Below, piece after piece: positions 40,600 to 49,243 of a DNA stretch of 64,000 nucleotides (position 1 is the stretch's first letter; the number at the start of each line of letters is the position of its first letter). The DNA lies in assembly GCA_965223505.1 (NCBI GenBank), contig CBDCWP010000030.1, positions 160,001-224,000 of the forward strand. Reading direction: 5' to 3'. Under the pieces are notes generated by a model. It did no database searches and was not told where the DNA came from. It saw nothing but the letters and a program-made list of their open reading frames with translations. A program made the translations under genes and the position numbers. The stretch comes from Planctomycetota bacterium (GTDB lineage: Bacteria; Planctomycetota; PLA2; JAEUHO01).

Positions 40600-41464
40600 G
40601 ATCCCATGGGACTTCGACCACGATCGTCACGAGTTTGCCTGAGGGGAGCTTCTTGACAAAGCTCAATTGGAACGAATTGGAGTCTGCGTCGAAACCGAGG
40701 AAGCGACTAGCTCCTACTGTGATCCCCCAGCCAGCTGGGGATGGTGGACTGGGAACTCCGGGATAGCTCGGAGAAGAGATTGGATCGAAGTGCGGTTCCC
40801 AGTCCGCGAAGTCCCAGGGGCGAATCAACCTGATGAGTTCAATTATCAGTTGAACAATCCACCAATTCGAAGGCCGACTGCCGCCGGGACCAAAGCCATG
40901 AGGCCCGACGCTTGACGGCGCTCCCCCCCCACCCGCCCCCGCGTCAGGGGGATCGAACTCAGCCGGGCGCTTGAATGGAGGAGTCCATTCGGGAGGAACA
41001 TCTCCATGCTCCAGGATGTACTCAAGAACCCACTTCAACTCCTCAAAGAAAGTCAGTCCTTGCGGGATGACAGAGGTGGGTTGTGATTTGACCACTGAAG
41101 GGGTGCCCGGTCGGATCGGAGTCGGTTGCACCAACGGGCTGCCACCGCCGAAAGCGCTCGGAGCGGACCCAGGGGGCCCTCGGAACGGATCATGTCCCCC
41201 CGGTGCGAATGGATCTAGGAGCGGGCCAAAGGGGTCGGCAGGCTGGCCTTGGGGATCCGCAGACGGGCCCCAGGGGTTCGCAGACGGACCGCGTGGGGGA
41301 TCCCCGGACGGGCTGAAGGGGTCGCCGTCGTAGGGAGCATATGGATCTCGTAGCCCGAAGTCCGGATGCTTCGCCGGGTCAGTTCTCCCCCCAGGATACG
41401 TGGTATCACCGAGGTCAAAGCCCGGCGGTTGTCGTCTGATCGGGTCGCCCTGCGGATCGCCCAT
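40556..41464 (-). CDS. Pro/Gly-rich DPF-repeat protein with conserved C-terminal beta-rich domain
   Basis: DPF/DPY/NPW repeats; C-terminus aligns to 47536-47845. Confidence 0.65.
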   Translation of the reverse strand: MGDPQGDPIRRQPPGFDLGDTTYPGGRTDPAKHPDFGLRDPYAPYDGDPFSPSGDPPRGPSANPWGPSADPQGQPADPFGPLLDPFAPGGHDPFRGPPGSAPSAFGGGSPLVQPTPIRPGTPSVVKSQPTSVIPQGLTFFEELKWVLEYILEHGDVPPEWTPPFKRPAEFDPPDAGAGGGGAPSSVGPHGFGPGGSRPSNWWIVQLIIELIRLIRPWDFADWEPHFDPISSPSYPGVPSPPSPAGWGITVGASRFLGFDADSNSFQLSFVKKLPSGKLVTIVVEVPWDLDEASAFAGVGFDF

Positions 41465-41479
41465 TGTTCACCTGCAATT

Positions 41480-41812
41480 CTAGTACGGGCGCCACGTGGG
41501 ACGTTGCATCAGGAAGTGAACGCCGTCGGTGGAGTCGTCTGCCGCGTCGAACGAGTACTTGAAGCGGAGGATCTCCTTGCAGCCAGTGAGATCGACGTCG
41601 ATCGTCGCCACTGAGCTTGCTCCTGAGAACGAGCCGAGAGCCGTGAACGACGTGTCTTCGGCATTCCGGTGCTCGACGGCAATCGTGAATGTCGGCGACC
41701 CCACCATCTGGGTGATGTCCGCAACGAAGGTTGCCGCGAGGCCACCACGCGCGAACTCCGGGCTGTAGTACGGCGTGCCGTCCATCTCGAATATTGATGT
41801 ACCTACGATCAT
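41480..41812 (-). CDS. Small beta-rich hypothetical protein
   Basis: GGAGG RBS; first gene of a tightly spaced three-gene run. Confidence 0.65.
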   Translation of the reverse strand: MIVGTSIFEMDGTPYYSPEFARGGLAATFVADITQMVGSPTFTIAVEHRNAEDTSFTALGSFSGASSVATIDVDLTGCKEILRFKYSFDAADDSTDGVHFLMQRPTWRPY

Positions 41813-41940
41813 AGCTCTCTCCTCCAACGCACCCTGAGTGCGCAGCCGTGGCGTCGTTTATCAAATGGACACAGAGTGTCCGGTTGGCCGCTGGCGGAAG
41901 AAGCGCCGCGAAGAGAAGCCGAGTCCCCCTCGAACGTTCT

Positions 41941-43338
41941 GGCAGAGCAACGTTCTTTCTGTAAATCGCTGAGCGGTTGATCAAGCGTCGTCCCTCGGCA
42001 AGTACCTCCGTCCGGTTTCCCATTCCTCGCTGATCTCGATGAGCACCGCGCTTGCGAGCCGCAGCAAGGACGCTTCGTTCGGAAACAATCCGGCGACGCG
42101 AGTGCGGCGGCGGATCTGCTGATTCAGGTTCTCGAGGCTGTTGGTGGTGCGAAGGCGCTTGCGCTGCGCTTCGTTCAGGCCGAGATCGAACACGGTGAAG
42201 CCCTGCGGAATGTTCTCTTCGGCCCAGCGCGCCAGGTCGGGCGCGGGCTTGTCCCACTTCTTCACGAAGGCCTTGAGCTTCTCTTCGGCCTCGCGACGCG
42301 ACGTCGCATTGAACGCGGCGCGAAGGTCAGCGGCAACGTCGCGTCGAAGCTTCTGGCGCGGAACGTAGCTCTGCGCGTTCTGCTGCAGGTGGAACTGGCA
42401 GCGCTGCCAGGCCACGCCGGCGAACCGCGCCGCCAGCGCGGCCGCAATGCCCTTGTGGCCGTCGCTGGTGATGAGCTCGACGCCGTGAAGGCCGCGATCC
42501 TGGAGAGAAGCGAGGAACTCGCGCCAATGGACCTCGGCCTCCGAGAGGCTCACGCTCGTTCCCAGCACGCTGCGCTTGCCGTGAGAATCGACGCCGATGG
42601 CGATCAGCACAGCGCAGTCGCGCACCGATCCGCCGTGGCGCACCTTCTCGTAGCGAGCGTCGAGTACGAGGTACTTGAACGCGCCGAGCGGACGTGTGCG
42701 CCAGCGCTCGAGCTCCTCGTCGAGCAGCGCAGCTGCTCGAGACACGCTCGTGGAGCTGATCTCCAGGCCGTTGCAAAGCACCTTCGTGATCGCCTCGACA
42801 CGCCGCGTCGAGACGCCCTGGACGTACATCTCCGCCAGGGCCAGCGTGAGCGCTCTCTCGCTTCGCTGGCCGCGTTCGAGGCTGGAGGGGTAGAACGTGT
42901 CGCCGCCCTCGACGTCGCGAACCTGGGGCACCTGGACGTCGATCTCGCCCAAGCGGGTTCTGACGCGCTTGCGCTTGAAGCCGTTGGCGTAGCCGCGGCG
43001 CTGATCCGTGCGTTCGTGGGGCTCGGCGCCGAGGAAGGCACTGCGTTCGACCTTCATGGCCTCGTTCACCAGCACCCGCATCGCCTCAGCCATGCCGTCG
43101 AACCCGTTCTCGCTGAGCGCTTCCAGTGCGTCGCCCCAAGGCGTACGCTGTTCGTGGTGGGTCACGTCGTTCCTCCTTTGCGTGGTGTCGTTACCTGCAA
43201 AGGTACGGCGTTGATCCGCCACTCAGTTCGCCCCGGGAGATGGCGGCGCGCCCGCTTCGCTTGAATCAGCTAGCTGATTCAAGCGAAGCGAGCGCCTCTC
43301 CTCCGGGGAGCCATTTACAGAAAGAACGGTACACCCTC
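41941..43338 (-). mobile_element. IS256-family element, copy 1
   Basis: Imperfect TIRs sharing CGTTCTTTCTGTAAAT; 8-bp TSD AACGTTCT at 41933-41940 and 43339-43346. Confidence 0.95.
41981..43222 (-). CDS. IS256-family DDE transposase
   Basis: MYVQGVSTRRV, LDARYEKVR, SDGHKG, WQRCQFH, RTTNSLE. Confidence 0.95.
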   Translation of the reverse strand: MADQRRTFAGNDTTQRRNDVTHHEQRTPWGDALEALSENGFDGMAEAMRVLVNEAMKVERSAFLGAEPHERTDQRRGYANGFKRKRVRTRLGEIDVQVPQVRDVEGGDTFYPSSLERGQRSERALTLALAEMYVQGVSTRRVEAITKVLCNGLEISSTSVSRAAALLDEELERWRTRPLGAFKYLVLDARYEKVRHGGSVRDCAVLIAIGVDSHGKRSVLGTSVSLSEAEVHWREFLASLQDRGLHGVELITSDGHKGIAAALAARFAGVAWQRCQFHLQQNAQSYVPRQKLRRDVAADLRAAFNATSRREAEEKLKAFVKKWDKPAPDLARWAEENIPQGFTVFDLGLNEAQRKRLRTTNSLENLNQQIRRRTRVAGLFPNEASLLRLASAVLIEISEEWETGRRYLPRDDA

Positions 43339-43697
43339 AACGTTCTTGCCTCCTGCGTACCAGTTGCTGCATCTATGACGGTAGCGCCTGCTGCGGGGTC
43401 GTCAACGGCCATTTGCGCGGCGGGACGAAAAACTAGTCAGAGCAAAGAGTGCGCCAGCAGCCATTTCTCCAAGAGAGTTTGCAACAACTGGTACTTGAGG
43501 AAGCTCGAACGAGTTCGAGAGACTACTGGCGCGACGGCACTGTAACGAACCAGGACGACGCACAAAGCGATTTGCGACCAAGGGGTAATCCGAAAGTACA
43601 GAGATGAGATGAGAAGGCCGGTCTCCCCTGTCCCGCAGTCGCGGTAAACCGCGCTGCAAATGAAACACGGGCTTGACGGCCCAAAGGGAGAACCGGC

Positions 43698-44747
43698 ATG
43701 ACGAATCGTATCACCGAGACAATCGGGGTGGATCTGGGGGACCGCTATTCGGCGTACTGCGTGATCGACGAGGGTTCGGGTGAGATGCAGGGCGAGGGGC
43801 GGATCCGTACGACGCCCAAGGGGTTTCGCGAGTTCTTCGCCAAGCGAGCGAGCTCGCGAGTGGTGCTCGAGGTCGGGACTCACTCGCCGTGGACGAGTCG
43901 CATCATTGCAGAGAGCTGCGAGCAGACGTTGGTGGCCAACCCGCGGCAATTGGGGTTCATCTTCAATAGCGCGCGCAAGTCGGATCGCGTGGACGCGCGA
44001 TTGCTTGCGCGCGTGGGACGCCTGGACGCGTCGTTGTTGTGTCCGATCCGGCATCGCGGACTGAAGGCACAGCAGGACCTGGCGGTGGTTCGTGCTCGGG
44101 CTGCGTTGGTATCGGCACGCACGAAATTGGTGAACAGCTTGCGCGGATTGACCAAGAGCTTCGGCGCCCGTATTCCGAAACAAGCCGCCAAGTCGATCAG
44201 CACGGAGACGCGCTCGCGCGTACCCGAAGAGTTGCGGGATGCCGTACGACCGCTCCTCGTTTCGATCGAGGGTCTCACGGGCGAGATCAAGAAGTACGAC
44301 AAGTTGATCGACGATCTAGCGACGACGCACTATCCCGAGATCGGGGCACTGACGCAGGTGGCCGGCGTGGGCAATCTGACGGCGTTGACATTCGTGCTGA
44401 CGTTGGAGGACCCGGCCCACTTCGCCGAGAGCCGCGACGTGGGGGCGTTCCTGGGACTGACTCCCAAGCGCGACCAATCAGGTGAGACCGACAAACAGCT
44501 GCGCATCTCGAAAGCCGGCGACAAGGTGCTTCGCACGCTACTGGTTCAGTGTGCTCACTACATTCTTGGGCGCAACGGACCACCGAGTGACCTGAAGCGC
44601 TACGGCGAACGGGTTGCCTCACGGGGCGGAAAGATCGCGAAGCGCAAGGCGGCGATCGCCGTGGCACGCAAGTTGGCGGTGCTTCTGCACTCGCTATGGC
44701 GAAGCGGCGAAGCGTACGTGCCCGAGCGAAAGGCCGTTTCCGCGTAG
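43698..44747 (+). CDS. IS110-family DEDD recombinase/transposase
   Basis: GVDLG, VLEVG, KSDRVDA, GVG, GLTP..QSG, AVARKL. Confidence 0.95.
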   Translation: MTNRITETIGVDLGDRYSAYCVIDEGSGEMQGEGRIRTTPKGFREFFAKRASSRVVLEVGTHSPWTSRIIAESCEQTLVANPRQLGFIFNSARKSDRVDARLLARVGRLDASLLCPIRHRGLKAQQDLAVVRARAALVSARTKLVNSLRGLTKSFGARIPKQAAKSISTETRSRVPEELRDAVRPLLVSIEGLTGEIKKYDKLIDDLATTHYPEIGALTQVAGVGNLTALTFVLTLEDPAHFAESRDVGAFLGLTPKRDQSGETDKQLRISKAGDKVLRTLLVQCAHYILGRNGPPSDLKRYGERVASRGGKIAKRKAAIAVARKLAVLLHSLWRSGEAYVPERKAVSA

Positions 44748-44799
44748 CGGCTGCCTTGAATAGCCACGAACGCGGCGACAACACCAGATTTCACGCTTC

Positions 44800-44945
44800 A
44801 TCCCGAGTCCGGGCGACTGCGGTGTACCTGGCGGACGCAATGCGACGTCGCTACTGAGATTGCAGCGCCCCGGCTCACTCGGATCTCCTCATGCACCGGA
44901 CCTCAGATGCAGGTCCACCAAGAGTGCGTATAGAAGCCTGGGCAG
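44800..44945 (+). ncRNA. Putative bridge RNA / seekRNA
   Basis: Two stem-loops carrying short matches to target flanks and to the element's ends; boundaries approximate. Confidence 0.7.
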
Positions 44946-44985
44946 GAGCGTGCCTCTGGAAACGTGGCCGCCGACGCGGCTCGAC

Positions 44986-44991
44986 TTGACA
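44986..44991 (+). promoter_or_regulatory. Outward-facing -35 box in the IS right end
   Basis: Perfect TTGACA abutting the right subterminal IR. Confidence 0.55.
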
Positions 44992-45025
44992 AGATCGGCC
45001 TTCTCATAGAAGCCAGAGCATTTTC

Positions 45026-45075
45026 TCACCATTAGCGCTAGCCAAGACACTCACCATTAGCGCTAGCCAAGACAC
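45026..45075 (+). repeat. 25-bp tandem duplication
   Basis: TCACCATTAGCGCTAGCCAAGACAC twice. Confidence 0.9.
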
Positions 45076-46046
45076 TTTGAGGCCACATTGGCGCAGCGAC
45101 TCCGATACTCAGGATCGTGAACCATGAGGTAGCGGTGCTGTACTTGGCGTTTGGTGGCGGTCGACGCCGTGCAGTTGGTGTAGCGCGTTATCGCTGCGTA
45201 GGTGAGGCCGGCAAGCTCACGCAAGAGACCGACCGTAAGCACCGGCCATGCATCCCGCTTTCGCGTTCCGCTCACTGTGCACCGAAGCTCGAGGCCGCGA
45301 GACTCCTCCGCCACGACCGCCAGCACTCGCGATGCCGCCACGTACGGCAGGCCGGGCTTGGTTCCGTCCGCCAGACGCGCCTTACGCAGCATCCACGACA
45401 TTACGCGCGAGGGTGCTGCGCCGACAAGCGAGTCCCAGCAGTCATCGCCGTGCGCCGCCGTCGACAGACGCAATTCGATGACTGCGCACTCCTCCGATGA
45501 GATATCCCGTCCGAACCGTCGTTGATACGCCAGCGCGCGTTCGGTGGGACGACATCGTCCTATGCGCGCGTCGATCCACTCGCCCCAGAGCCACGGGGGC
45601 CGACGCCGGCGCGTGAGATGGAACGCACTGCAGAATGGGTATTCTCGCGAGGCCGTGACCAGGCGCGCGTCGAGCGCATTCTGGTCGATGTATCGAACAA
45701 GGACTGTCGCGTATCTCTCCGAGCGCACCGGCTTTGACAGAAAGCGACTCCGGAACAGCGGCCCGTCTCTCCTACGAGTGCGGTTGAAGTACCTCACGTA
45801 GAGATTCTGGACACGCTGCATCACACCCGAGAGCTCGCCGGTCGTGCTTTCGAGGAGCAGATGGAAGTGCGTTGACAGAATGGCGTACGAGACGATCCGG
45901 ATTCGGCCGCGCCGTACCTCCCGTGCGAGCAGCGACAGGAAGAACCGCGCGTCTTGCCTCGTCTCGAAGACGGTCCTACGCGCGAGCCCACGGTTCATCA
46001 CGTGGTGCAGGAGCCCGGGGTGGTCGACTCGTTGACGTCTCGGCAT
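45063..46046 (-). CDS. HUH Y1 transposase-like (RAYT-type) protein with C-terminal HTH
   Basis: MPRRQR..HHVMNRG, HFHLL (HUH), GPLFRSRF, RYIDQN (catalytic Tyr). Confidence 0.88.
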   Translation of the reverse strand: MPRRQRVDHPGLLHHVMNRGLARRTVFETRQDARFFLSLLAREVRRGRIRIVSYAILSTHFHLLLESTTGELSGVMQRVQNLYVRYFNRTRRRDGPLFRSRFLSKPVRSERYATVLVRYIDQNALDARLVTASREYPFCSAFHLTRRRRPPWLWGEWIDARIGRCRPTERALAYQRRFGRDISSEECAVIELRLSTAAHGDDCWDSLVGAAPSRVMSWMLRKARLADGTKPGLPYVAASRVLAVVAEESRGLELRCTVSGTRKRDAWPVLTVGLLRELAGLTYAAITRYTNCTASTATKRQVQHRYLMVHDPEYRSRCANVASKCLG

Positions 46047-46124
46047 GAGGTTCGCCGGGACATCGCGCGAACGTCGCTGCCGGTCACGCTATTGGTGAGA
46101 AATTGCTCTGGCTCGGTACGGGTG

Positions 46125-46177
46125 TGGAGCCCCGGGTCGGGTTCGAACCGACGACCCCCGCTTTACGAAAGCGGTGC
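46125..46177 (-). repeat. Middle att site: tRNA-Thr 3' 53 nt
   Basis: Exact copy of 49974-50026. Confidence 0.93.
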
Positions 46178-46271
46178 CTGTCAACACCAGATGGGTCTCT
46201 TGAGTCAATGAGCACAGTCCACGACGTGCGGACTAGGACTACGGGAACATGAGGGTTTGGGGGGCGTCAAG
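46178..46271. repeat. Conserved att-arm sequence, copy A
   Basis: 86/94 identical to 39267-39360. Confidence 0.88.
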
Positions 46272-46308
46272 ACAGGGGCGTAGGGGCAAGCCGACGTACG
46301 ACGCGAGG

Positions 46309-47475
46309 CTAGCCCTTCTTCCCGGCAGGCCAAGCTGCGTCAAAGTGCTTTCTGGCGTAGCGGCGTAACGCTGCTTCCACCTCGTCGCTCACGCTTCTCT
46401 CGATGTCGGAGTCGTCATGTCGGCTCTGCGATGCGACCCAAGTTCGAGTGACATGCTTGCGCACGTCAGCGCGCGATGGCGCAAGGACCCGGCGTTTCGC
46501 GATCATGGCACTCACGTCCAATCGACCAGACTCACCCCCCAAGATCACCGCTGCCAGTCTCTCTGCCGCGTCCGTCAGACGCTTCGGCTCCACTAGCGCG
46601 TCCGGCGATTGTCCCGCGATGGCCATCAATCCTTCGTATAGAAGATGCGAGCGAATCTCGCGCTCTCTCCGAGGGTCCAGCGCGGCGACACCACTCGTCG
46701 CCGACGCAATGACTCTTTGGATTCTCGACGGCCACGCACTGGCTTGTATCTCAACGGGACGACGCTTCATGCGGATCTCGTCCCCGGTCCCCGCCTTGCG
46801 CGCATGAGCCGAGAGTGGGAGTCCCGTAGCACGATCGATGCGCATGGCCGCTCGCGTCGAGCGCAGAATCACCTGGTTCGTCTTCTCGTCGACTACGACC
46901 TTCTTTCTCTTAAAGAGATCCTCGTCCAGCCATGTCGCGCCGACGCCAGAATCGACCCCCATCCCCACGAAGAGGCGTATCCGGTCGTTCTCCTTTTCGT
47001 CTACAAGGATCTTGAATGTGACGACCACTGGCGAGAGCTCAACTAGCGGGATCTTCCACTCTTTGCAGAGACTGCTAATCACGCCTTGCGCCCTCGCTGT
47101 CTCGGCACGAATCAATTTCCATGCGACTGAGAACGCGTATACGGGCTTACCACCTGCAACCGCAACCATACGGGTCCTATCGGCTACAAACCACGACACG
47201 AAGTTGGAGTCGCCATCGGCGACTCTGTGGGAAACGCCATGCAGATCGCCCTCGCGAAACACCTCGAACACGCTGTTCATTGCGGGCGTGGACGATGCGC
47301 TTCCCGGATTGACGCTGAGCGTGTACGCAACATGAATGCGCTCTTGCTGCTCAAAGCGATCTACGAGTTCCTTTCGGGCGGCGGCGGCGTCGGAGGCCTC
47401 GTCCGCACTGACGACGGCGACCGCGAGCAGAAGAACAGCCAGCGAACGAAGCACAATCATGGTCGTCAGTTTCAC
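46309..47475 (-). CDS. Uncharacterised secreted protein (paralogue of 39406-40599)
   Basis: Signal peptide; RFEQQERIHV, ADRTR, IDRATGL..AHARKAG. Confidence 0.75.
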   Translation of the reverse strand: MKLTTMIVLRSLAVLLLAVAVVSADEASDAAAARKELVDRFEQQERIHVAYTLSVNPGSASSTPAMNSVFEVFREGDLHGVSHRVADGDSNFVSWFVADRTRMVAVAGGKPVYAFSVAWKLIRAETARAQGVISSLCKEWKIPLVELSPVVVTFKILVDEKENDRIRLFVGMGVDSGVGATWLDEDLFKRKKVVVDEKTNQVILRSTRAAMRIDRATGLPLSAHARKAGTGDEIRMKRRPVEIQASAWPSRIQRVIASATSGVAALDPRREREIRSHLLYEGLMAIAGQSPDALVEPKRLTDAAERLAAVILGGESGRLDVSAMIAKRRVLAPSRADVRKHVTRTWVASQSRHDDSDIERSVSDEVEAALRRYARKHFDAAWPAGKKG

Positions 47476-47535: not shown

Positions 47536-47845
47536 CTAAACGTCAAAGTCGATGCCGACAAAGAACGGGATCTTCCCGTCTTCCGGCAGCTCGACTACAA
47601 CGTAGACCTTCGCACCGTTCGCAAGTCTATAGACTATGCCGACGCTATTACTGGAAACTCCGAAGAAACCGATTGGACTCGCTCCCGGTGATATGGGGAC
47701 TCCCCATTTTCCTACGTACGGCGGCTCCTCCGGGGGAGGAAAGCCAAAAGCAGTGGGCCCAAAGTAACCAGGTTTGCTTTTGCCACTCCAGCCGAACATT
47801 TCCCACAGGAGATCCGTTAACCATTCGATGAGCCACGCATTTGCT
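47536..47845 (-). pseudogene. 3' remnant of a paralogue of 40556-41464, truncated by IS256
   Basis: WLIEWL..WG....GAS..GF..SNS..L.NG..V.VVVELP..FVGIDFDV aligns with the C-terminus of 40556-41464. Confidence 0.7.
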
Positions 47846-49243
47846 GGCAGAGCAACGTTCTTTCTGTAAATCGCTGAGCGGTTGATCAAGCGTCGTCCCT
47901 CGGCAAGTACCTCCGTCCGGTTTCCCATTCCTCGCTGATCTCGATGAGCACCGCGCTTGCGAGCCGCAGCAAGGACGCTTCGTTCGGAAACAATCCGGCG
48001 ACGCGAGTGCGGCGGCGGATCTGCTGATTCAGGTTCTCGAGGCTGTTGGTGGTGCGAAGGCGCTTGCGCTGCGCTTCGTTCAGGCCGAGATCGAACACGG
48101 TGAAGCCCTGCGGAATGTTCTCTTCGGCCCAGCGCGCCAGGTCGGGCGCGGGCTTGTCCCACTTCTTCACGAAGGCCTTGAGCTTCTCTTCGGCCTCGCG
48201 ACGCGACGTCGCATTGAACGCGGCGCGAAGGTCAGCGGCAACGTCGCGTCGAAGCTTCTGGCGCGGAACGTAGCTCTGCGCGTTCTGCTGCAGGTGGAAC
48301 TGGCAGCGCTGCCAGGCCACGCCGGCGAACCGCGCCGCCAGCGCGGCCGCAATGCCCTTGTGGCCGTCGCTGGTGATGAGCTCGACGCCGTGAAGGCCGC
48401 GATCCTGGAGAGAAGCGAGGAACTCGCGCCAATGGACCTCGGCCTCCGAGAGGCTCACGCTCGTTCCCAGCACGCTGCGCTTGCCGTGAGAATCGACGCC
48501 GATGGCGATCAGCACAGCGCAGTCGCGCACCGATCCGCCGTGGCGCACCTTCTCGTAGCGAGCGTCGAGTACGAGGTACTTGAACGCGCCGAGCGGACGT
48601 GTGCGCCAGCGCTCGAGCTCCTCGTCGAGCAGCGCAGCTGCTCGAGACACGCTCGTGGAGCTGATCTCCAGGCCGTTGCAAAGCACCTTCGTGATCGCCT
48701 CGACACGCCGCGTCGAGACGCCCTGGACGTACATCTCCGCCAGGGCCAGCGTGAGCGCTCTCTCGCTTCGCTGGCCGCGTTCGAGGCTGGAGGGGTAGAA
48801 CGTGTCGCCGCCCTCGACGTCGCGAACCTGGGGCACCTGGACGTCGATCTCGCCCAAGCGGGTTCTGACGCGCTTGCGCTTGAAGCCGTTGGCGTAGCCG
48901 CGGCGCTGATCCGTGCGTTCGTGGGGCTCGGCGCCGAGGAAGGCACTGCGTTCGACCTTCATGGCCTCGTTCACCAGCACCCGCATCGCCTCAGCCATGC
49001 CGTCGAACCCGTTCTCGCTGAGCGCTTCCAGTGCGTCGCCCCAAGGCGTACGCTGTTCGTGGTGGGTCACGTCGTTCCTCCTTTGCGTGGTGTCGTTACC
49101 TGCAAAGGTACGGCGTTGATCCGCCACTCAGTTCGCCCCGGGAGATGGCGGCGCGCCCGCTTCGCTTGAATCAGCTAGCTGATTCAAGCGAAGCGAGCGC
49201 CTCTCCTCCGGGGAGCCATTTACAGAAAGAACGGTACACCCTC
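47846..49243 (-). mobile_element. IS256-family element, copy 2 (no TSD)
   Basis: Same ends, length and transposase as copy 1; flanks CATTTGCT and GATGGGAG differ. Confidence 0.95.
47886..49127 (-). CDS. IS256-family DDE transposase
   Basis: Translation identical to 41981-43222. Confidence 0.95.
   Translation of the reverse strand: MADQRRTFAGNDTTQRRNDVTHHEQRTPWGDALEALSENGFDGMAEAMRVLVNEAMKVERSAFLGAEPHERTDQRRGYANGFKRKRVRTRLGEIDVQVPQVRDVEGGDTFYPSSLERGQRSERALTLALAEMYVQGVSTRRVEAITKVLCNGLEISSTSVSRAAALLDEELERWRTRPLGAFKYLVLDARYEKVRHGGSVRDCAVLIAIGVDSHGKRSVLGTSVSLSEAEVHWREFLASLQDRGLHGVELITSDGHKGIAAALAARFAGVAWQRCQFHLQQNAQSYVPRQKLRRDVAADLRAAFNATSRREAEEKLKAFVKKWDKPAPDLARWAEENIPQGFTVFDLGLNEAQRKRLRTTNSLENLNQQIRRRTRVAGLFPNEASLLRLASAVLIEISEEWETGRRYLPRDDA

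Follow-up and report, generated by a model that had tools for sequence, protein, structure and literature searches.

Here, we provide comparative sequence evidence for an RNA-guided mobile element in a 64,000-nucleotide stretch of DNA from a Planctomycetota bacterium (NCBI GenBank assembly GCA_965223505.1, contig CBDCWP010000030.1, positions 160,001 to 224,000; hereafter the window, from whose first letter all positions are counted). Judged in this way, positions 43604-45012 are an intact, single-copy member of the IS1111 group of the IS110 family, and its 3' end very probably (we put the probability at roughly 0.88) encodes a bridge RNA, or long seekRNA, of ~141 nt on the transposase strand. 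A first-pass annotation of the window had proposed a two-loop guide RNA with an AG core in the non-coding end of this IS110-family element, and the proposal of a bridge RNA or seekRNA is now supported by protein family, element layout, guide covariation and helix covariation. Every defining feature of an IS1111-type bridge RNA that can be examined at the sequence level is found here (Table 1).

Table 1. Features of the insertion sequence, its predicted RNA and the adjoining DNA, by position in the window.
Feature	Position	Strand	Basis or remark
Left target flank TACAG plus core AG (core 43602-43603)	43597-43603	+	sequence
Whole insertion sequence, 1409 bp	43604-45012	+	one AG core copy counted, at right edge
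Left terminal extension ATGAG, 5 nt; right half of donor in the predicted circle junction	43604-43608	+	sequence, relatives
Left subterminal inverted repeat ATGAGAAGGCCGGTCT, 16 nt	43609-43624	+	94% complementary to 44992-45007
Transposase/recombinase gene, 349 aa, intact	43698-44747	+	open reading frame, Pfam, NCBIfam
Predicted bridge/seek RNA, long form, ~141 nt, P0 5' CCC to P0 3' GGG	44802-44942	+	alignment A1, covariation
P0	44802-44804 with 44940-44942	+	87.5% paired; both-side changes in 3/3 pairs
P2 CCGAGT/ACTCGG	44803-44808 with 44877-44882	+	GAGTC/GGCTC equally possible alternative in this copy
P1 GGGCGACTGC/GCAGCGCCC, A44816 bulged	44811-44820 with 44862-44870	+	closes target-binding loop
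Right-target guide slot TACCTGG, 7 nt	44825-44831	+	only CTGG (44828-44831) complementary to right flank CCAG
Variable hairpin GCGGACG..CGTCGC in target loop	44832-44851	+	single-sequence fold; length differs among relatives
Left-target guide TACTG plus core AG, then AT	44852-44860	+	family identity, permutations
Right-donor guide CTCCT (44885-44889, family register) plus C opposite core G	44885-44890	+	covariation
P3 TGCAC/GTGCG, enclosing hairpin GGACCT/AGGTCC (44898-44903/44911-44916)	44892-44896 with 44924-44928	+	
Left-donor guide ATAGA plus core AG	44930-44936	+	identical to right end plus core, 45006-45012
TTGACA, -35-like hexamer	44986-44991	+	17 nt before GAAGAT, a hexamer existing only across the circle junction
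Right subterminal inverted repeat AGATCGGCCTTCTCAT, 16 nt	44992-45007	+	pairs with 43609-43624
Right target flank CCAGAGCATTTTCTCACCATTAGCG, one arm of inverted repeat pair around RAYT-like gene	45013-45037	+	23/25 identical to 46087-46111 (-)
Paralogous uninterrupted site GTACCG-AG-CCAGAGCAATTTCTCACC, single AG	46094-46119	-	paralogue, not empty allele

The element reads GTACAG-AG/ATGAG ATGAGAAGG ... CCTTCTCAT AGA-AG/CCAGAGCA (slashes mark its edges), with AG at both junctions, and its relatives have the same junction layout. The subterminal inverted repeats are complementary at 15 of 16 positions, in keeping with the ~7-17 bp and short terminal extensions typical of the IS1111 group, and five further bases lie on each side (ATGAG on the left; AGA plus the core AG on the right). 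Most relatives repeat the inverted-repeat motif ATGAGAAGGCC together with a 5-nt left extension and a right end of the form CAT-NNA-core. Among 27 classes the left extension is ATGGG in 19, ATGAG in three, and ATGGA, GTGGG, TTAGA, ATGTG and GTCAT in one each. The non-coding ends of 94 nt on the left (43604-43697) and 265 nt on the 3' side (44748-45012) correspond to the IS1111-group layout of a short left end, a long 3' non-coding end and subterminal repeats, as set out in section 6 of PMC11187229 and in the parts of PMC11208160 used here. The protein matches the Pfam domains DEDD_Tnp_IS110 (PF01548; 3.7e-12) and Transposase_20 (PF02371; 4.8e-20), and the NCBIfam model NF033542, 'IS110 family RNA-guided transposase', at 208 bits (cut-off 140). 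In an alignment of the protein's C-terminal domain with the IS621 recombinase (PDB 8WT6; E 3.3e-9), GLTPKRDQSG comes to lie over the Ser-Gly motif, and this string of the translation fits the C-terminal GL-P----S(T)G motif with catalytic serine as defined in section 6 of PMC11187229.

Relatives were collected by searching the proteins of 401 genomes from this phylum, 31 of which had homologues at E<=1e-40; a protein scan of genome contigs added one relative only (L011, from a Planctomycetota metagenome-assembled genome, 76% identity). With further copies taken from multi-copy genomes, 38 elements with >=250 aligned residues were available. All four RNA anchor motifs were present in the 3' non-coding end of 34 of these, and absent as a full set from L017, L026, L032 and L051.

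By this comparison, positions 44802-44942 are a conserved structured RNA in the right-end non-coding region, present in 34 of the 38 relatives and with covarying helices. Covariation of the helices was counted on a MAFFT alignment of 24 relatives (A1), the 14 invariant RNA columns of which this copy carries. The covariance model R1 scores the RNA of this copy at 128 bits, the sequence having been in the seed of R1. P1 is paired in 96.6% of cells, with both-side changes in five of nine pairs. P2 was tested sequence by sequence because MAFFT misaligns it: the longest helix between an element's own segments averaged 5.8 bp, against 4.46 for mismatched partners (0/20000 permutations). P3 pairs are kept in 23-24 of the 24 sequences, with three double changes, and a U.G pair of P3 is present in 23 of the 24; read from the opposite strand this pair would be C.A, which favours the plus strand. 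The target arm (44803-44882) accounts for 80 nt of the ~141-nt RNA, and the first G of its variable hairpin is common to the guide slot. RNAalifold on the MAFFT alignment recovered part of the structure only, and an Rfam scan of 43300-45300 returned only two chance-level matches (E 0.25 and 8.7), both outside the RNA region. The strings on which the first-pass annotation had built its loops, including GGGCGACTGC/GCAGCGCCC (44811-44820/44862-44870), GGACCT/AGGTCC and CCGAGT/ACTCGG, all lie where it had placed them.

One of the relatives lacking the full anchor set, L017 (G064:C4), keeps the target arm and loses the 3' half of the donor region, after which unrelated, coding-looking sequence follows; it has probably been interrupted by another insertion.

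The target guides follow the insertion sites across the family. Each guide class entered the comparison as one row, in which the guide was set against its own element's flanks and against those of every other element. In a fixed register before the 3' strand of P1, the left-target guide agrees with its own site at 4.72 of 7 positions and with the sites of others at 3.06 (n=25; 0/20000 permutations). The right-target guide, scored by its best position within 16 nt after the 5' strand of P1 under an identical rule for all pairs, reaches 6.0 of 7 at its own site against 3.84 at others (n=26; 0/20000 permutations). Position by position over 29 rows, identity is 0.76, 0.66, 0.79, 0.79 and 0.93 at the five bases left of the core and 0.14-0.38 farther out; to the right it is 0.72-0.93 at seven bases and 0.24-0.45 farther out. 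Covariation of guides with insertion flanks across homologues, which the first-pass annotation had put forward as a check on its proposal, is thus found for both target guides. The family register places TACTGAG (44852-44858), which had been read as a guide to the left flank, as the left-target guide of five nucleotides plus two of core. CTGG, read as the guide to the right flank, proves to be the 3' end of a 7-nt slot, although in this copy the slot as a whole does not rise above chance when taken alone.

The cleanest evidence of guide-site covariation comes from close sisters within one genome (G351), where L029 has GACAGAG in both guide and flank and L048 and L050 have GACGGAG in both. The four copies of this genome (L029, L048, L049 and L050) sit in microsatellite-like tracts of GAGACA/GAGACG, their guides differing by one base together with the flanks. 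The core is followed as well: where it is AC, both same-sense guides contain AC and the right-target guide is succeeded by GT; in L044, whose core is CG, the right-target guide is succeeded by CG. An exact core complement stands after this guide in 16 of 29 rows. In most members the AT behind the left-target guide agrees with the two bases that open the element. A possible 'handshake' role for this AT is not demonstrable: it covaries in L037 (TT) and L019 (AA) only and disagrees in at least five elements (L013, L020, L022, L029 and L038).

Several observations weigh against this reading. On the side of method, the anchors of L034 and L036 and the ends of L022, L025, L027 and L046 were assigned manually and not by the automatic search, and the permutation tests take guide classes as independent though the relatives are kin, so that permutation significance is somewhat overstated. 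The present copy fits its own site poorly: its left-target guide agrees with TACAG plus AG at four of five positions and both of the core, and its right-target slot agrees with the complement of CCAGAGC at 4/7, close to the unrelated-site mean of 3.84, which gives 10/14 for the two guides. The clade of this copy, L011, L014, L015 and the G167 elements lacks the core complement after the right-target guide (0/5 guide classes; all 16 rows that have it lie outside the clade). For the right-donor guide of this copy two registers are conceivable, since CTCCTCAT gives two overlapping matches (repeat CTC-CTC-AT). DNA and covariance-model (R1) searches of the own genome returned neither a second copy nor an orphan RNA, a promoter scan of the linear element (43550-45080) returned no sigma-70-like promoter, and no RNA runs are listed among the public runs holding the sequence, which leaves no sign there that the RNA is made.

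One alternative hypothesis proposes that the element is of the same kind but that this copy is a stranded or decaying relic, inserted off target or with guides that have since drifted, and that it has ceased to move, so that its guides reveal little of a usable specificity. We consider this possible, at odds well short of even. Its single copy speaks for it, as do the site-guide match of 10/14 and the right-target score of 4/7 against a family mean of 6.0. Moreover, the predicted optimal target had 17 matches in the own genome at three mismatches against 71 for a reversed control, that is, no enrichment and no site nearer the optimum than the control. Decay is less easily reconciled with a full-length reading frame (349 aa) with intact motifs, inverted repeats complementary at 15/16 and the presence of all 14 invariant columns of A1. 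It is also countered by G167 relatives with the same left-target guide, which occupy TACGG, TACCG and CTTG sites. A ~90% related metagenome copy on one run contig, whose match begins at 43597, again has TACAGAG as its left flank. The G167 sites TACGG and TACCG and this metagenome copy differ from the guide at the same position, which suggests that a mismatch there may be tolerated. At four of the five sites of TACTG guides (own, three G167 and metagenome copy), the guide U concerned, which lies three positions before the core, is opposite A, C or G. The remark of the first-pass annotation that this U would wobble-pair better with the uninterrupted site is chemically right, as it faces a bottom-strand G at TACCGAG and T at the occupied TACAGAG. 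It is tempting to speculate, though we think it rather unlikely, that the clade with this copy reads its target differently, with the core read via one guide only and one guide position unread. If true, bridge recombination would have a natural variant here, which would explain insertion at a 10/14 site.

Returning to the predicted bridge RNA, the helices and guide registers place the donor guides in a multiloop bounded by P0, P3 and the target arm. In 25 of 27 classes the left-donor guide with its core repeats, at 7/7 positions, the right end plus core of the element to which it belongs (0/20000 permutations), and it tracks five variants (ATGGAAG, ATAGAAG, ATACAAG, ATAAAAG and ATAGAAC). ATAGAAG (44930-44936), which had been noticed in the first-pass annotation as a copy of the right end plus core, is this guide. 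For the right-donor guide, offsets 0-8 upstream of P3 were compared, of which one tracks the left extension (3.93/5 against 3.38; 0/5000 permutations) and the other eight are not significant. Examples, in reverse complement, are TCTAA for TTAGA (L037, 5/5), TCCAT for ATGGA (L021, 5/5) and CACAA for ATGTG (L036). In this copy CTCCT is complementary to ATGAG at four of five positions, and the family evidence favours this upstream register (44885-44889). The earlier candidate, CTCAT at 44888-44892, is indeed a perfect complement of ATGAG, but the family register lies 3 nt upstream of it; the last base of CTCAT is the U of the conserved P3 U.G pair (23/24), and the offsets tested stop short of CTCAT. 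Likewise, two guide-bearing loops with an AG core were correctly foreseen, but the donor guides lie in a P0-closed multiloop and not in a simple loop around the GGACCT hairpin. An extended match of ATAGAAGCCTGGGCA with ATAGAAGCCAGAGCA (13/15) was considered as a longer guide and rejected: the C-TGG after the core is conserved whatever the flank and forms the 3' strand of P0.

It could be argued that only the ~80-nt target arm (44803-44882) is functional, that the protein reads the element ends via the subterminal repeats, and that the ATAGAAG identity reflects a constraint at the DNA level, e.g., an internal copy of the right end. The main RNA co-purifying with IS1111 transposases is a short form with target matches only, according to the sections of PMC11187229 used here, the inverted repeats are long and conserved, and covariation of DNA does not separate RNA-DNA pairing from DNA-level homology. 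Nevertheless we regard this hypothesis as very unlikely: the left-donor guide follows five variants of right end plus core, the right-donor guide follows left-end variants in reverse complement at one fixed offset, and both flank the conserved P3 in the geometry given for IS1111 in the consulted parts of Durrant et al. (2024, Nature 630:984; PMC11208160). That the matches arose by chance, the non-coding end being merely a structured 3' untranslated region or terminator of the transposase mRNA, can be dismissed as extremely improbable: three of the four matches are common in 20000 mononucleotide shuffles of 44748-44991 (CTGG in 14246, 71%; TACAGAG with <=1 mismatch in 4417, 22%; CTCAT in 2817, 14%), the fourth, ATAGAAG, occurs in 107 (0.5%), and no Rfam family matches, yet all four in the observed order occur in 0/20000 shuffles, the guide-to-site permutations of the family gave 0/20000, and a scan of the 3' non-coding end (44748-45012) found no terminator-like site. 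The shuffles bear out the caution of the first-pass annotation that each match is short and that support lies in the arrangement.

A model for the activity of the element could run as follows, with circle, junction-promoter, pairing and strand-exchange steps that we infer from published work on IS621, ISEc11 and ISPa11. The layout of the RNA itself is shown by the comparison with relatives: the target arm, closed by P2 and P1, carries the 7-nt right-target slot, the variable hairpin and the left-target guide, which has 5 nt and is joined to the 2-nt core. The multiloop, closed by P0 and P3, carries the right-donor guide (44885-44889) and the left-donor guide with core (44930-44936). Briefly, the element might excise as a circle joining ..CATAGA-AG-ATGAG.., with the predicted junction sequence ..CATAGAAGATGAG.. 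(also written ..CATAGAAGATGAGATGAG..). The circle would bring TTGACA next to GAAGAT and thereby create a junction promoter driving the transposase gene and the downstream RNA. TTGAC(A/G) was read by eye at the same spacing in most relatives. For ISEc11 the only promoter seen was one formed in the circle, as far as PMC11187229 was used here, and the TTGACA/GAAGAT arrangement fits this as a putative junction promoter. In the recombinase-bound RNA, the target guides would pair with both strands of a site like TACTG-AG-CCAGGTA, and the circle junction would likewise be paired on its two strands by the donor guides, whereupon the serine of the SG motif would exchange strands at the AG core.

Durrant et al. 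(2024, in the parts consulted) predicted bridge RNAs in the right end of 93% of catalogued IS1111 elements and noted that a multiloop often carries the donor guides. The RNA described here agrees with these bridge RNAs in its place 3' of a DEDD recombinase gene, in the long subterminal repeats, in target guides within an internal loop and donor guides within a multiloop, and in a 2-nt core common to the guides. It differs in its Planctomycetota lineage (<=76% protein identity among those found), its AG core and the lack of an Rfam model, the comparison being one by text and not by their covariance models. Sections of Siddiquee et al. (2024, PMC11187229) report that seekRNAs of four IS1111 members (ISEc11, ISPa11, ISKpn4 and ISPst6) bind the transposase and are reprogrammable. 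The present element shares with these four the IS1111 layout and a top-strand-complementary segment 5' of a bottom-strand-complementary one; the guide order given in the first-pass annotation, reverse-complement guide first and same-sense guide second, is that published for IS1111 seekRNAs in section 9 of that paper. As in these members, no internal promoter is seen besides the circle-junction one, which is putative here. The RNAs co-purifying with the ISEc11 transposase measure 82 nt and 154 nt, which resembles the 80-nt target arm and ~141-nt RNA found here, and REP-targeting ISPa11 has a counterpart in the present target, a repeat beside a RAYT-like gene. Unlike our element, known from its letters alone, those members had RNA co-purification and reprogramming shown by experiment, whereas donor guides, evident here by covariation, are not described in the sections of that paper drawn on.

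With IS621 (8WT6-8WT9; PMC11208158, in the parts used) the element shares the recombinase family, left guides equal to the top strand, complementary right guides and a core read in both loops. IS621 differs in carrying its RNA in the left end, in reversed guide order, in having two simple internal loops and in its CT core, and its handshake guides are not demonstrable here. ISPpu9/Ssr9 of Pseudomonas putida (NAR 2025), as presented in the portions of PMC12288879 used, is likewise an IS110-family element in repetitive extragenic palindromes (REP) with a small-RNA gene 3' of the transposase gene; organism and sequences are different.

That IS1111 right ends provide for RNA-guided recognition of both target and donor, with a multiloop as the place of the donor guides, has been known since 2024, and this knowledge is unchanged; NCBI already names the protein family 'RNA-guided transposase'. 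What is new is a well-resolved natural series of Planctomycetota IS1111-type bridge RNAs, with ~29 guide classes and their own sites. Guide lengths can be read from the series as 5+2 nt (target left), 7 nt (target right), and 5+2 and 5 nt (donor), and the core varies naturally between AG, AC, GG and CG. The series is useful raw material for the mining of bridge recombinases.

A 25-nt repeat flanks, in inverted orientation, an open reading frame of 327 aa (45063-46046, minus strand), and the insertion of the element coincides with the outer limit of this repeat. The reading frame resembles REP-associated tyrosine transposases (RAYT; NCBIfam REP_Tyr_transpos) at 57 bits, below the cut-off of 80. 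The junction sequences are as the first-pass annotation had described them. The related uninterrupted site on the other side of this gene also reads GTACCG-AG-CCAGAGCA (46094-46119, minus strand) and has one AG where the element has AG at both junctions. The true pre-insertion site was not found among contigs of four public runs (X1-X4). Neither an empty site nor a circle junction was seen because the contigs of these runs lack a joint across the element. The right flank contains a 25-bp direct duplication (45025-45049 and 45050-45074, 100%), and the right flank of L014, by eye, also runs into a RAYT-like reading frame. A search of the own genome for the actual target motif gave five matches against 20 for the control, so that the target is no multi-copy repeat there. 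A transfer RNA scan of 45000-46500 found none, though the sequence before the paralogous site looks tRNA-like by eye.

In L013 (G167:C7, 456-1433 in locus coordinates, element on the minus strand), one of three copies of its element, a 323-bp unit occurs three times in tandem without a mismatch (100%); it begins where the bridge-RNA gene begins, TCCGGGTGACTGCGG, and runs to the right end, CATAGAAG. At the unit boundary, AG/TCCGGGT equals the outer right junction of the element, AG/TCCGGGTAACGGG, which indicates that the 5' edge of the RNA gene mimics the target. The module of RNA plus right end may have been amplified by self-targeted or unequal recombination, with an assembly artefact as a possible alternative. 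Extra RNA-module copies of ISPpu9/Ssr9, in the same portions of PMC12288879, resemble these units.

The left end (43619-43697, the 5' untranslated region) contains a conserved long-range helix in which GCCGG of the inverted repeat, extending to GGTCTCCC, pairs with GGGAGAACCGGC before the ATG and covers a Shine-Dalgarno-like GGGAG. GCCGG/CCGGC becomes GCCAG/CTGGC in relatives, both sides being changed in 6/16 sequences, and the helix may serve translation control. The helix encloses two hairpins, one at 43633-43658 with a bulged T and the other CGGGC..GCCC. The segments 43633-43642 and 44813-44822 are complementary, but this was rejected as a conserved interaction, as the left hairpin changes in relatives to GAGG/CCTC or GGGG/CCCC while P1 stays constant.

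The own genome also contains four copies of a different IS110-family element, each scoring 181 bits on NF033542 (C30:282455-283447, C34:164384-165376, C44:25805-26797 and C44:79696-80688). This element is unmatched by model R1 and should therefore carry another kind of guide RNA. In the window, two identical reading frames of 413 aa (41981-43222 and 47886-49127, both minus strand) flank the element ~5.9 kb apart. Each is followed by a reading frame with the same first 106 residues (41415-42257 and 47536-48162), and the pair looks like two copies of another mobile element.

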